From Eledone cirrhosa (Eukaryota): DNA of 64,000 bases. This document shows positions 571 to 63,987 of this stretch, in pieces. Each line of letters begins with the position of its first letter. Positions within the stretch are counted from its first letter, which is position 1. The stretch covers positions 19,716,001-19,780,000 of the forward strand of contig OZ024743.1 in NCBI GenBank assembly GCA_964016885.1. The letters are read 5' to 3'. Below the pieces are notes generated by a model. The model searched no databases. It was not told the origin of the DNA and was given only the letters and a program-made list of their open reading frames with translations. The translations under genes were made by a program, and so were the position numbers.

Positions 571-689
571 AACAAAGAAATAGTGGTAAGGAACCAGATG
601 GACCATACCGCACCAGAGTACTCAATACATAGGGTAGTAGATTGGGAAATAGGAAAAAGTATGACCCCCGGGGTCATACTTTTTCCTAT
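571..689 (-). mobile_element. Family A minimal PLE-type hairpin insertion (short palindrome plus tail) in (TA)n
   Basis: Palindrome 649-689 (ataggaaaaagtatgacccc-c-ggggtcatactttttcctat). The 571-648 tail matches the reverse complement of the tails at 1681-1760, 31803-31880 and 34455-34531. (TA)n lies on both sides. Confidence 0.8.
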
Positions 690-709: not shown

Positions 710-956
710 AGTGTTAGAACACTGGAAGGTAATATCCGTAGTGGTGAAGCACTCAGACCATGTGACGAGTTAGGTAGAAGTGGTTACACAACAGTTATTA
801 GTTCACCATACCGAGAACAATTGTTTCACCTTAGCAGATCCTCACCTCGTAATGGACAAGGTTATATGTTCCGTATAACCATGTCCCTTACGAGCTGAGG
901 ATCCGCTAAGGTGAAACGATTGTTCTCGGAATGGTGAACTAACTGTTGTGTAAGCA

Positions 957-959
<3 letters not shown>
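710..959 (-). mobile_element. Family B hairpin insertion (inverted pseudo-LTR fragments plus tail)
   Basis: Inverted arms 778-866 and 874-959, an unpaired tail at 710-777, TA tracts on the flanks, and an HHR motif in each arm. Confidence 0.8.
891..928 (+). ncRNA. Minimal type I hammerhead ribozyme motif
   Basis: cgag-CTGAGGA-tcc gctaa ggt-GAAAC gatt GTT-ctcg, with stem I cgag/ctcg. The mirror copy at 812-849 (-) has palindromic stem III ACAATTGT but C3>G. Confidence 0.7.
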
Positions 960-1521: not shown

Positions 1522-1825
1522 GGAAAAGATTCAGGTTCCTCGACGGGCTGAGCTCCGGCTTTTTCGAGAGCTAGATCCGAACTAAACCGGTAGCGTTAGG
1601 TCCTAACACTACGGGTTTAGTTCGGATCTAGCTCTCGAAACGGCCGGAGCTCAGCAGTCGGCGTCCAGACTCTTTTCCTATTACCCATTCTACTATCCTA
1701 AGTTTCGAGTACTCTGGTGCCTTATGGTCTACCTGGTTCCTTACCACATTTCCTTCGTTATACATACATAGGAAAATGTTTAACCCCGACGGCAGAGCAC
1801 ATGCCGTTTCGACGGCTATTTCTGG

Positions 1826-1829
<4 letters not shown>
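1522..1829 (+). mobile_element. Family A hairpin insertion plus an adjacent solo inverted arm
   Basis: Arms 1522-1600 and 1602-1678, tail 1681-1760 shared with the other A copies, and a further inverted arm at 1769-1829 ending in (TA)n. Confidence 0.8.
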
Positions 1830-1922
<93 letters not shown>

Positions 1923-31684: not shown

Positions 31685-31687
<3 letters not shown>

Positions 31688-31880
31688 GGAACAAGTATGA
31701 CCCCGACGGCAGAGCTCAAGCCGTTTCGACGGCTAATTCTGAGTCCAGAATAAGCCGTCGAAACGGCTTGAGCTCTGCCGTCGGAGTCATACTTGTTCCT
31801 ATTATCCACTCTACTACCCTAAGTATTGAGTACTGTGGTGCGTCATGGTCCTTTTTGTTCCTTACCACATTTCCTTCGTT
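31685..31880 (+). mobile_element. Family A hairpin plus tail
   Basis: Arms 31685-31741 and 31746-31802, tail to 31880, (TA)n on both sides. Confidence 0.88.
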
Positions 31881-34227: not shown

Positions 34228-34531
<304 letters not shown>

Positions 34532-35684: not shown

Positions 35685-35723
35685 GATGTACTAGTTTCAA
35701 GCTTGTTTGCTATCATCAGCACC
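35685..35723 (-). ncRNA. Minimal type I hammerhead
   Basis: Reverse complement: ggtg-CTGATGA-t agc aaacaa gct t-GAAAC ta GTA-catc. Confidence 0.8.
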
Positions 35724-36182: not shown

Positions 36183-36221
36183 GATGTACTAGTTTCAAGC
36201 TTGTTTGCTATCATCAGCACC
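36183..36221 (-). ncRNA. Minimal type I hammerhead
   Basis: Identical to 35685-35723, 498 bp away. Confidence 0.8.
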
Positions 36222-42779: not shown

Positions 42780-42839
42780 TGGGAAATGAGTTAGAACCCC
42801 GACGGCTGAGCTCCGACCGTTTTTACAGCTAGATCCGAA

Positions 42840-42842
<3 letters not shown>
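42780..42842 (-). mobile_element. Family A solo arm
   Basis: accccgacggctgagctccgaccgtttttacagctagatccgaact matches 1537-1583 and lies between TA tracts. Confidence 0.75.
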
Positions 42843-42894
<52 letters not shown>

Positions 42895-45599: not shown

Positions 45600-48500
45600 T
45601 GCTTTGGGAGGGTCATGTTGCAAATAGGAAACACACGCACCAGTTGTTTTCACTCAAATTTATTATAAATTAAATTTATCAATTTCCTGTTGGTTGGTTG
45701 GTTGGTTGGTTGGTTGGTTGGTTGGTTCCATAACCGGACGGTTGTTCATATATTGTCAAAGTTCTTTCTTCACACATTATATGACCTCTTCAGTGACTGG
45801 GGATTCTTTTCTTTGTTTTGTGCCTCTCCTTTGTTCTGTCCTACGCCATCTTGTTTGTGTGTGTGTTGTGTGCTTAGTTTACGCATGTGTTACATCCGGG
45901 TGTCTGTGTGTGTTTTTATTTGTTTATTTATTTGTTTATTTACATGTTACTGGTTGGTTGTTTGTTCTATGTGAGAGTGTTTTCATTTTGTCCTTAATTG
46001 TAAGTTGTGATGTTGCCATTCCATTCATGTTTTCTATTTAATTTTGGTTGGAGTTCATTTATGTTTATTGCCTCTGTGATTTGTATAAACATTTCGTCTT
46101 TTCTGTGTGTAGATTATATTTTTATTTCTATGTTCTCTAATTTGCCCTTATGTTCTATTTTCCCATGTTGGTGGAGTATTGATGATTCTTTTTTTTATCT
46201 TGAAGTTCTCGCCAGTGTTCATTTAACCGTTCTCCTATACTACGAGCTGTCTCGCCTATGTACATTATATTCTTATCTTTACATTGTCCTTCGGTACATC
46301 TAATGCTATATACTACATTTCTTGTTTTACAGTTAATATGGGGGCTTAGTTTACAGATTATGCATTTATTATCTATACAGGGACGTCTTTGAAAGGGGTA
46401 TGTATTGCTAATAAGTGTTTTTATGGAGGTACCTGGTGTTTCTACTATCTTAATATTAAGTTTTTGTTTATCTAGGGCCCTTCTAAATTTCTAAGCTAAT
46501 TCACCTCTAGGGGTTGTATTGATGAACATTACACTCTGGTATTTATTGCTATCATACCATGAGTTTATTCTATTAACCTTATTCCTAGTTCTTTCTATTA
46601 TATTCCAAAATGTACTCCTATACAAGGGGCAGGTCCCATTTGTATCATTATTTACCATTTTATCCCATTTGGTTCTGGCTCCTCTATATACTCTGATTTT
46701 ATCTCTCTGATTGTAACCAGACAACTGCATACGGTGGATGAAGTGTTGTATGTGTCGCTCTAGTTCTTTGGGGCTGCACATGCGGGACATTTTCTCATCA
46801 CCCGTAACAAATCCACAATCAGTATGTTGATTTTGGTGTGATCCGAAACAGCTGCGTTTCCGTGGATCAGATATTTGGAAATCATGGGTTTGGCATAATG
46901 GGAATGGAGGATTTATTTTTTTGTTATTAATGGTTTCTAACCAGAGCTCTGTGTCTAGTACAGGTAATCGATGGTTTCGTGTGTTTGGTTGGGTAGTCTA
47001 TAGTTAATCTAATGCTCTGGTGGATGGAGTTAGCCGAAAACCACGATGAACTAAAGAAAATGATTGCACATGCGCTGGGGACCAGTATATAACTAACCCT
47101 TAAGGAACATATGTTCAAATTTAATGAAAAAACATATGCCCAAGAGAGGGTGCAGTCATTGGTGTTAGCATTGCAGATGACATAGCTATTCATGGTATGG
47201 TGGGACAATAAACATAAACTTAAACTTAAAGAACAATTAGAAGACAGCAACTCTTAACCCTGATAATATACTCCCGCTAGAGTATTAGAGTTACTATAGA
47301 CTACCCAAGCAAACACCCCAACCATCGATTACCTGTACTAGACACAGAGATCTGGTTAGAAACCATTAATAACAAAAACAAATCCTCCATTCTCATTATG
47401 CCAAAGCCATGACTTCCAAATATCTGATCCACGGAAACTCAGCTGTTTCGGATCACACCAAATTCAACATACTGATTTACGGATTTGGTACGGGTGATGA
47501 GAAATGTGTCCCGCATGTGCAACCCCGAAGAACTAGAGAGACACATACAACACTTCATCCACCGTATGCGGTTCTCTGGTTACAATCAGAGAGATAAAAT
47601 CAGAGTATATAGAGGAGCCAGAACCAAATGGGATAAAATGGTAAATAATAATACAAATGGGACCTGCTCCTTGTATAGGAGTAAATTTTGGAATATAACA
47701 GAAAGAACTAGGAATAAGGTTAATAGAATAAACTCATGGTATGATAGCAATAAATACCAGAGTGTAATGTTCATCAATACAACCCCTAGAGGTGAATTAG
47801 CTTAGAAATTTAGAAGGGCCCTAGATAAACATAAACTTAATATTAAGATAGTAGAAACACCAGGTACCTCCATAAAAACACTTATTAGCAATACATACCC
47901 TTTTCAAAGACGTCCCTGTATAGATAATAAATGCATAATCTGTACTAAGCCCCCATATTAACTGTAAAAGTAGAAATGTAGTATATAGCATAAGATGTAC
48001 TGAAGGACAATGTAAAGATAAGGATATAGTGTACATATGTGAGACAGCTCGTAGTATAGGAGAACGGTTAAATGAACACTGGCGAGAACCTCAAGATAAA
48101 AACGAATCATCAATACTCCACCAACATGGGAAAATAGAACATAAGGGCAAATTAGAGAATATAGAAATAAAAATAGAATCCACACACAGAAAAGACGCAA
48201 TGTTTAGACAAATCACAGAGGCAATAAACATAAATGAACTCCAACCAAAATTAAATAGAAAACATGAATGGAATGCCATCATCACAACTTACAATTAAGG
48301 ACAAAATGAAAACACATACACACATAGAACAAACAAACAACAGTAACATGTAAATAAACAAATAAATAAACAAATAAAAACACACACAGACACCCGGATG
48401 TAACACATGCGCAAACTAAGGACACAACACACACTAAAACAAGATGCCGTAGGACAGAACAAAGGAGAGGCACAAAACAAAAAAAAGGATGCCCAGTCAC

Positions 48501-55190: not shown

Positions 55191-55251
55191 CATATATATA
55201 TATTAAGAGAGTAAAACAAAGAATCCTTTAATACATCAAAAGTTTTTATTA

Positions 55252-55289
55252 GCCGACAATGTTTCGTCCTATTAAGGACTCATCAGGGC
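55252..55289 (-). ncRNA. Canonical-core minimal type I hammerhead at a PLE-like 3' end
   Basis: Reverse complement: gcc-CTGATGA-gtcct taat aggac-GAAAC att GTC-ggc, followed by AATAAA and (TA)n. Confidence 0.85.
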
Positions 55290-55730
55290 AATCAAAACAA
55301 CAAGAGGTAATTTCGGCAGATACAAGCCAGAAACTCTGAAGAATATGGAGTGTACATACACTAATGTCTTACAAAGATATACGATAATAAAAATGAAGAT
55401 AAAAATAATAAAATTATAATAACTAAGGATGTAGATAACATTAAGAACCATATTACAAATATAGTCCAAAGTCACCAACTTAAATCTCTGCACAAACAAG
55501 TTAGTGACATAGTCACTACTTAAACATTCCTAGCGAATGGTGTTCCTAATGTTTACAGTGTATAATCAAATATATTATACATACATACATTCATATAGAC
55601 ATCACTATTTCTCTGCACCAACACTAATACATATATATTGTCTATATACTTATAAATACATTTGCGTCTTTTTGTGTGTGTATATATATATATATATTCC
55701 AATAGCCGAAATGCGATTCTCGGTAATTTA

Positions 55731-58278: not shown

Positions 58279-58358
<80 letters not shown>

Positions 58359-58364
58359 CATTAA

Positions 58365-58520
58365 TTCTACAAGACTAGAATAGTTTCATTCGTATGAAAT
58401 CACCAAGTTCTAGTCCTGTAGAGGTTATTTCTTTATAAAATAAAGGTGCTTCTACGACCAACACATTGGGTGAATTCTTTAACTGTGGGCACCTCTAGAT
58501 CCACGTAGGGAATCTACCTC
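58365..58520 (+). mobile_element. Family K short hairpin plus tail in (TA)n
   Basis: tctacaagactagaa / ttctagtcctgtaga inverted. The left arm reverse complement carries GGTGA-tttc atac gaat-GAAAC. Confidence 0.65.
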
Positions 58521-63443: not shown

Positions 63444-63987
63444 ATATATCATAAATCATGTCCTTAGAATTATTAGATAAAATATGTACCATTTCCTCTC
63501 CCAATTAGCATAATTAAGAATATAAAAAATCAATTAGACCAGGCTATAAGAATAAAGGCTCCTATGAAGAAATATTTGATAAATAATCGAAAGCAGCCTC
63601 TTAACGGTGACCCCAATAGAATATTTACCCAACATTTCAACAGCATGTAGAAACTGACTAAATATACTGTCAACCATACACAATTAGGTGTAAATTTAAA
63701 CTTAGAAGAAACCTGTACATACCGTAAAAGTTTAAATTTACACCTAATTGTGTATGGTTGACGGTATATTTAGTCAGTTTCTACATGCTGTTGAAATGTT
63801 GGGTAAATATTCTATTGGGGCCACCGTGAAGAAGCCGCTTTCGATTATTTATCAAATATTACTTAATAGGAGCCTTTATTCTTATAGCCTGGTCTAATTG
63901 ATTTTTTATATGGTTAATTATGCTAATTGGGAGAGGAAATGGTATATATTTTATCTAATAATTCTAAGGACATGATTTATGATATAT
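63444..63987. repeat. Family F palindrome with ~260 bp arms
   Basis: 63444-63703 pairs with 63728-63987 across a 24 bp spacer. Ends in (TA)n. Confidence 0.92.

Follow-up and report, generated by a model that had tools for sequence, protein, structure and literature searches.

A minor class of family A insertions in Eledone cirrhosa ends at a predicted hammerhead cleavage site

Family A insertions in the window

The window analysed here, 64,000 nt of Eledone cirrhosa contig OZ024743.1 (assembly GCA_964016885.1, positions 19,716,001 to 19,780,000), carries several insertions of a repeat that we call family A. The smallest lies at 572-688 on the minus strand, flanked by TA repeats. The insertion consists of 97 bases from the end of a Penelope-like element (PLE), placed head to head with an inverted copy of 19 of them, both halting at a predicted hammerhead cut. 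Positions within the element are counted from this cut, +1 being the base after the predicted GUC. The parts of this copy are:

572..668, minus strand: arm with the tail, spanning 97 nt up to its distal end in (TA)n
669..669, no strand: single base between the arms; it reads G in element orientation and is either untemplated or complementary to C17
670..688, plus strand: inverted arm, from +1 to an internal TA site at ~+19, joined to (TA)n

The first-pass annotation had described the copy at 571-689 as two arms that both begin at GGGGTC, one nucleotide apart, and this is correct: a perfect 20-bp inverted repeat (649-668 and 670-689) has base 669 as its spacer, and base 668 is the +1 of the tail-bearing arm. 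A G at base 669 would also be expected if the inverted arm had copied C17, one base past the cut. Because base 669 complements C17, an untemplated and a templated G are inseparable and the copy is ambiguous by itself; its match to the cut is not above chance as a single event but is above chance as a class. Adjoining this copy is another inverted insertion between TA repeats (window 823-957), with a hammerhead-like CTGAGGA...GAAAC, and sequence related to it is fused to a family A end in locus L043.

Other family A copies in the window run past the cut:

34398..34530, plus strand: typical tail-bearing arm, beginning ~37 nt upstream of the cut
34412..34440, plus strand: 3' half of the hammerhead, with GAAAC, the stem III hairpin, GUC, the cut at 34434/34435 and the 3' strand of stem I
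34340..34396, minus strand: inverted arm of the 34398..34530 copy, passing the cut and reaching ~-38
31685..31880, plus strand: inverted insertion, forward arm from ~-41 (initiator-like site) through the cut
1531..1760, plus strand: diverged inverted insertion, both arms past the cut, initiator-like TTAGTT at -41
1768..1830, minus strand: lone inverted arm ending at ~-41 to -42
42782..42843, minus strand: lone inverted arm from the diverged subfamily, with one extra base beyond its end at -41

The layout previously read at 34412-34454 was confirmed: GAAAC begins at 34412 and is followed by a 6-bp hairpin, GTC occupies 34432-34434, and GGGGTC starts at 34435. This copy lacks the 5' half of the hammerhead, as does every family A copy in the window; we found the full motif only in longer copies elsewhere. 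A search of 180 kb of neighbouring DNA with a strict anchor returned only three more copies, too few to use. At the far end of the window (63444-63987), a 260-bp inverted repeat with a 24-nt spacer lies beside TA repeats and represents another head-to-head insertion family.

The family A element and its predicted hammerhead

In the 3.0-Gb genome, the tail pattern of family A has 19,948 exact matches. Long copies continue upstream into the end of an ORF, and at one locus two family A repeats 3118 bp apart enclose a 719-aa ORF that, by motif reading only, encodes a reverse transcriptase (RT) and a GIY-YIG endonuclease (FDI, YRDD and VIY..YIG); its ATG lies 190 nt downstream of the hammerhead. 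No Pfam match to this ORF was found. It also contains RLRWR, DKT, CNCPDRSIC (CxCX5C), CNLC (CxxC) and CKH (CxH), and the Hydra clade is described, in the available text of PMC8557442, by RWK-like, DKT, CxCX5C linker, CxxC and CxH motifs. By eye, the protein resembles the printed alignment of Hydra-1_Obim from that source, likewise a single ORF with RT, a C-terminal GIY-YIG and the RWR, DKT, CxCX5C, CxxC and CxH motifs. The features of an EN+ PLE are present, namely a single ORF with RT and C-terminal GIY-YIG between pLTRs, an inverted 5'-truncated copy and a one-sided tail. Judged by its sequence, family A is the pLTR of a Hydra-type PLE that is very common in this genome.

The typical insertion is a head-to-head pair in (TA)n, with a forward arm to ~+97 and an inverted arm to ~+19. 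Nearly all of 99 loci examined are flanked by TA repeats, although the search patterns required TA at one side. One partial-tandem element (L170/L171, C1:11218000-11237999), which has an open ORF of 719 aa, follows an inverted 5'-truncated copy and sits among other non-LTR retrotransposon remnants. In a minority of inverted insertions (L033/L034, L045/L046, L054/L055 and L246/L247) both arms carry the tail, as if both cDNAs had begun at the distal site. As far as the available text of Craig et al. (2021; PMC8557442) goes, Hydra-clade PLEs share the (TA)n targets, the pLTR hammerhead, the partial tandem, the inverted 5' copy and the one-sided tail. Family A differs from them in its ~3.1 kb repeat unit, a tail of ~78 nt rather than 30-40, a U3-A8 core, a stable 6-bp stem III and a long loop II.

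Complete copies read CCCC, a core of UUGANAA, G, stem II (loop of 37-40 nt), GAAAC, stem III of 6 bp, GUC and GGGG, where CCCC and GGGG form stem I, N7 is G, T or C, and G10.1 pairs with C11.1. We interpret this motif as a predicted hammerhead of type I that has U3-A8 in its core. This pair is U3-A8 in 20 of 23 rows and C3 opposite A8 in three (L067:1346-1453, L107:853-960 and L172:6194-6302), some rows being two arms or repeated retrievals of one locus. The C3-A8 copies are possibly intermediates between C3-G8 and U3-A8 cores. U3-A8 is a described natural covariation (in the accessible part of PMC3088659) and occurs in hammerheads of Schistosoma PLEs (likewise PMC4209133). The three-way hammerhead fold was the minimum-energy structure in three of the five copies folded (L075, z -2.1; L080; L086) and not in L107 or L060. 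The stems are almost invariant in 11 aligned copies, so that they give no covariation support. Rfam hammerhead models matched neither the complete copy L080 nor the family A copies of the window, which weakens filing under Rfam families and leaves the working hammerhead model unaffected. The case for family A self-cleavage is an indirect one, namely the record left in its junctions.

The Rfam search of the window also gave one Hammerhead_1 match at 55248-55292 on the minus strand (31.7 bits; gathering score 34), a separate canonical CTGATGA hammerhead, and its other output was microsatellite noise. Two further repeat families have hammerhead-like cores, several of them in pairs 430-500 bp apart, which is retrozyme-like:

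9645, 45759-45793, 48500; and 35689-35719, 36187-36217, 48782, 49210: repeat families with hammerhead-like cores

Arm ends at the predicted cut and at about -41

The first-pass annotation had proposed that copies such as the smallest one were made from the self-cleaved 3' product, and that truncation points should peak at the NUH site. Breakpoints of all copies were read in the first 100 genome matches of a tail-only pattern, with no selection on the 5' end. The range from -33 to -46 contained the ends of 51 of 100 forward arms and of 39 of 52 inverted arms. The other forward arms ended at -2 to -32 (12), at -1 to +2 (4), at or beyond -47 (6) and at +3 or beyond (27, an upper bound, as the breakpoint script halts early in some mutated copies). 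Eight of the 100 reached -74 or further; L067 and L107 are really long copies. Counting inverted copies with identical flank patterns genome-wide gave 645 with a gap of 0-30 nt, 1,973 with 45-74 nt and 10,224 with 75-105 nt, these counts excluding the classes of 31-44 nt and above 105 nt. The predicted cut is thus not the main arm end of family A, and most copies run past it, likely having been made from uncut RNA.

At the cut itself, a sharp but minor peak was found. The short-hairpin sample comprised the first 100 matches in genome order, hence not a random draw, from 99 loci (two rows are one element), and in 44 of these 99 both ends were readable because the junction contained inserted bases. 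Inverted arms ended at +1 in 26 of the 44, at +2 in five, at -1 in none and at -2 in one; the figures for forward arms were 28, three, none and one (P ~1e-20 for the +1 peak under a null of equal frequency over 15 positions). In 22 of the 44 the two arms both stopped at +1, with varied A/T-rich inserts of 1-6 bases and in several subfamilies. Microhomology does not explain these +1/+1 joins, since both cDNA ends are CCCC and cannot anneal. Thirteen more loci have blunt CCCCGGGG joins, which are ambiguous through the CG palindrome and could be -1/-1 ends annealed by CG. No upstream-flank cross-matches were found among the 22 double-+1 and 13 blunt loci, four of which have fewer than 30 unique bases; the double-+1 junctions therefore appear to be independent insertions. 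A single amplified master junction is excluded by the varied inserts, the several subfamilies and the unrelated flanks.

The same peak was seen in copies joined directly to TA repeats. From 100 rows we obtained 60 sites, set aside 28 with an inverted stub and kept 32, of which, by hand count, 13 start at +1 (two of them 1.6 kb apart), four at +2, three at +3, none at -1 or -2 and five at -9. CpG decay as the source of the 'T before GGGG' was rejected, as there was no unmutated counterpart among the 32 sites; two TT cases remain possible. Genome-wide, 437 inverted arms (raw count) cease matching after +1 compared with 33 after -1, the -1 pattern being 1.5-fold stricter. A hand count of the first 100 among the 437 gave 20 one-base slips and 17 possible microhomology joins, and many of the 33 are microhomology joins as well. 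Scaling up gives ~140-230 copies with both arms ending at the cut, or 1-2% of the 12,842 inverted copies counted, and overall one to a few percent of family A copies halt exactly there. The smallest copy likely belongs to this minor class, probably reverse-transcribed from self-cleaved RNA. The earlier proposal thus holds for family A at the population level as a minor peak; it does not describe the main route, and its original example is ambiguous.

One result counts against cleavage as the source. A subfamily with C3-A8 in two of its three complete copies contributes 4 of 22 double-+1 copies and 6 of 30 ordinary copies, and its undiminished peak is unfavourable because the mismatch should impair the core. 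The true source of this subfamily may have had U3, or its cleavage may have been in trans.

The main arm end falls at A(-41), which lies within TCAGTC or TTAGTC, 29-31 nt after TATTTAAA or TATTCATA (29 nt in the case of TATTTAAA). A TATA box typically lies ~30 nt before an initiator (Inr), and this TATA- and Inr-like site is likely the start of a transcript. All 42 TA-joined sites listed begin between -37 and ~-46. An untemplated G precedes A(-41) in five of seven clear cases, or five of 14 with ambiguous ones included, versus one of 13 at +1 (P 0.007 for the clear cases; P 0.16, not significant, with the seven ambiguous cases included). Copying of the RNA cap would explain this extra G. Contigs from four sequencing runs do not reveal RNA ends; those of one run, which may be of the assembly's own sample, show a ~20-fold depth step across -41. 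TATA and Inr have also been proposed in the pLTR of rotifer elements (available text of PMC3846280). At two junctions (C1:64990508-64990554 and C1:88824945-88825031), sequence from -41 or from just downstream of +1 has been re-copied in short tandem units, which suggests repeated template jumps at an RNA 5' end.

A second repeat, family K, had also been cited for a cleaved template, on the ground that its tail-bearing arm starts within a few nucleotides of GTT|ctag. Its copy in the window is:

58357..58404, minus strand: inverted arm, reaching ~24 nt upstream of the predicted cut
58406..58520, plus strand: tail-bearing arm, beginning 4 nt upstream of the predicted cut at 58409/58410

The start at 58406 is indeed within a few nucleotides, but on the upstream side, contrary to a cleaved template; as both arms include sequence upstream of the cut, this copy argues against such a template. 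None of 19 short K hairpins (21 rows) had both arms at the cut; one arm ended at +1 and five at +2, which is the edge of the search pattern. The family is old (73-80% identity to the window copy). Its copies carry CTGATGA, GAAAC and GTT, and in the few that reach upstream the bases that would close stem I next to the core are unpaired, so that a stem I in family K is doubtful. Family K lends the proposal no support.

Coupled arms and the origin of the +1 class

The arms of family A have two fixed starts (~+97 and ~+19) and two preferred ends, carry untemplated bases and are coupled. On contig C1, inverted arms at +1 had a forward partner at +1 in 14 of 41 cases, versus a background of 4 in 100 (Fisher P 6e-6). 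Both arms also share the subfamily base at +12 (98 of 99, 28 of 30 and 30 of 30 loci, versus 34-44% by random pairing), although subfamilies active at different times could equally cause this sharing. The coupled ends and the shared base fit two cDNAs made from one RNA. A fold-back of the forward cDNA was rejected as the origin of the inverted arm, which often extends further upstream than the forward arm (e.g. L074 and L114).

We propose that the enzyme nicks (TA)n and primes twice on one RNA, at +97 and +19 and at two sides of the target, and that both cDNAs would extend to the 5' end of that RNA before their ends are joined. The usual 5' end would be the capped start at A(-41), inside loop II. 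RNA from this pLTR promoter would yield the common arms of ~140 nt and should be unable to cut in cis, because it is without the core and the 5' strand of stem I. Read-through RNA from the ORF would include the complete ribozyme, lying between the RT start and the ORF. Left uncut, it would give the long copies; once cut, both cDNAs would run off at +1 and gain a few bases, giving the tiny hairpins. Cleavage would abort, not produce, full-length copies. We consider it probable (roughly 70%), from junction sequences, that self-cleaved RNA is a minor, dead-end template and that the +1 class records ribozyme cutting in living germ cells. The wider proposal is more tentative, and we give it somewhat less than an even chance as a whole: hundreds of independent germ-line insertions would be a fossil record of in vivo hammerhead cleavage; the promoter in loop II would split the ribozyme, leaving the mRNA with the substrate half only; and the read-through RNA, the only source of full-length copies, would hold an active ribozyme acting as a brake that diverts both cDNAs into a tiny hairpin. 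The halves may reassemble in trans.

The strongest alternative, which we consider unlikely, is that RT pauses at +1 while copying uncut RNA, either where stem III begins or after the G run. Release, tailing and joining of the paused cDNAs would follow, and their match to the cut would be a by-product of ribozyme structure. Such pausing requires no catalysis, would accommodate the C3-A8 subfamily, and is favoured by one fold of the RNA from -41 (L060) in which stem III extends to +1/+2. A pause is expected at or within a helix, however, and the observed ends halt before unpaired C17, with none at -1 and almost none inside the helix, and the same hairpin is crossed by most cDNAs. Furthermore, joint +1 stops are about ten times more frequent than chance, which fits a property of the RNA molecule and not independent pauses. 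Arrest at a G-quadruplex was rejected separately: it would be expected to halt RT ahead of the G run, not after.

It is still less probable that the RNA 5' end at +1 is real but otherwise made, by a minor second transcription start, a host nuclease or a trans-acting ribozyme half on the -41 RNA. These would account equally well for the run-off features and the arm coupling, and the C3-A8 subfamily would be accommodated if a 5' half from another subfamily cut its RNA in trans. The two ribozyme halves are predicted to co-fold into a hammerhead for L080 and L086, but fail to do so correctly for L107 or L060. A second start is disfavoured by the lack of an Inr-like motif at +1 and by the extra G in only 1 of 13 cases there, and it would take a coincidence to place a start or nuclease site exactly 3' of GUC. 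Trans cleavage would still be ribozyme cleavage. Formation of the short hairpins after insertion, by central deletion of longer palindromes (which are unstable), or a chance match of the window copy, is largely excluded: many other junctions use microhomology and the window copy is ambiguous, but copies without an inverted arm, in which no cruciform can form, peak at the same position (13/32) and the +1/+1 joins have varied inserts and no microhomology.

Our preferred reading, the cleaved RNA as a minor template, can be set beside known systems, each as described in the available part of its source. In the anole PAc/Poseidon system (PMC11167929, Frangieh et al. 2024), two internal RT start sites likewise define the tail, both target strands are primed and uncut RNA is the dominant template. 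Ribozyme mutants of Anolis carolinensis PAc left in vitro insertion unchanged, and no RNA-seq ends were seen at the cut, in contrast to the minor genomic junction class found at the cut in family A; in addition, the PAc hammerhead overlaps the ORF start, and that of family A lies well ahead of it. The HDV-like ribozyme of R2 (PMC3774820) is a precedent for genomic 5' junctions that record a cut and for untemplated bases at RT run-off. There, however, the cut defines the normal full-length 5' end, whereas in family A the ribozyme belongs to another class, the route is minor and the copies are tiny dead ends. PLE hammerheads of type I in pLTRs, a U3-A8 variant, and single or opposite-strand motifs in truncated copies were described by Cervera and de la Pena (2014; PMC4209133); the metazoan ones are minimal, cut weakly and are thought to need dimers, whereas stem III of family A could fold as a monomer. 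Penelope insertions of Adineta vaga (PMC3846280) also have head-to-head inverted pLTRs, a one-sided tail and a putative TATA and Inr in the pLTR, and self-priming on an antisense template was favoured for their inverted structures. In family A, the inverted arms often reach further upstream and end at landmarks of the sense RNA, which fits two sense-RNA cDNAs instead. We found no breakpoint map around the cut in the available text on Hydra-clade PLEs (PMC8557442), nor a report of a breakpoint peak at a ribozyme cut in PLEs in literature outside subscription journals.

Since the element class, its architecture and the R2 precedent were already known, and since the route is a minor one, these results refine a mechanism and do not define a new system. 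In the part of PMC4209133 available, in vivo evidence for PLE hammerheads is stated to be absent. The coupling of arm ends bears on the origin of inverted 5' structures, pointing to two primings on one sense RNA. If our reading is right, the base-sharp junction peak means that the germ line contains cleaved RNA able to serve as a template, and such a peak would be a genome-only assay of ribozyme activity for any high-copy family.
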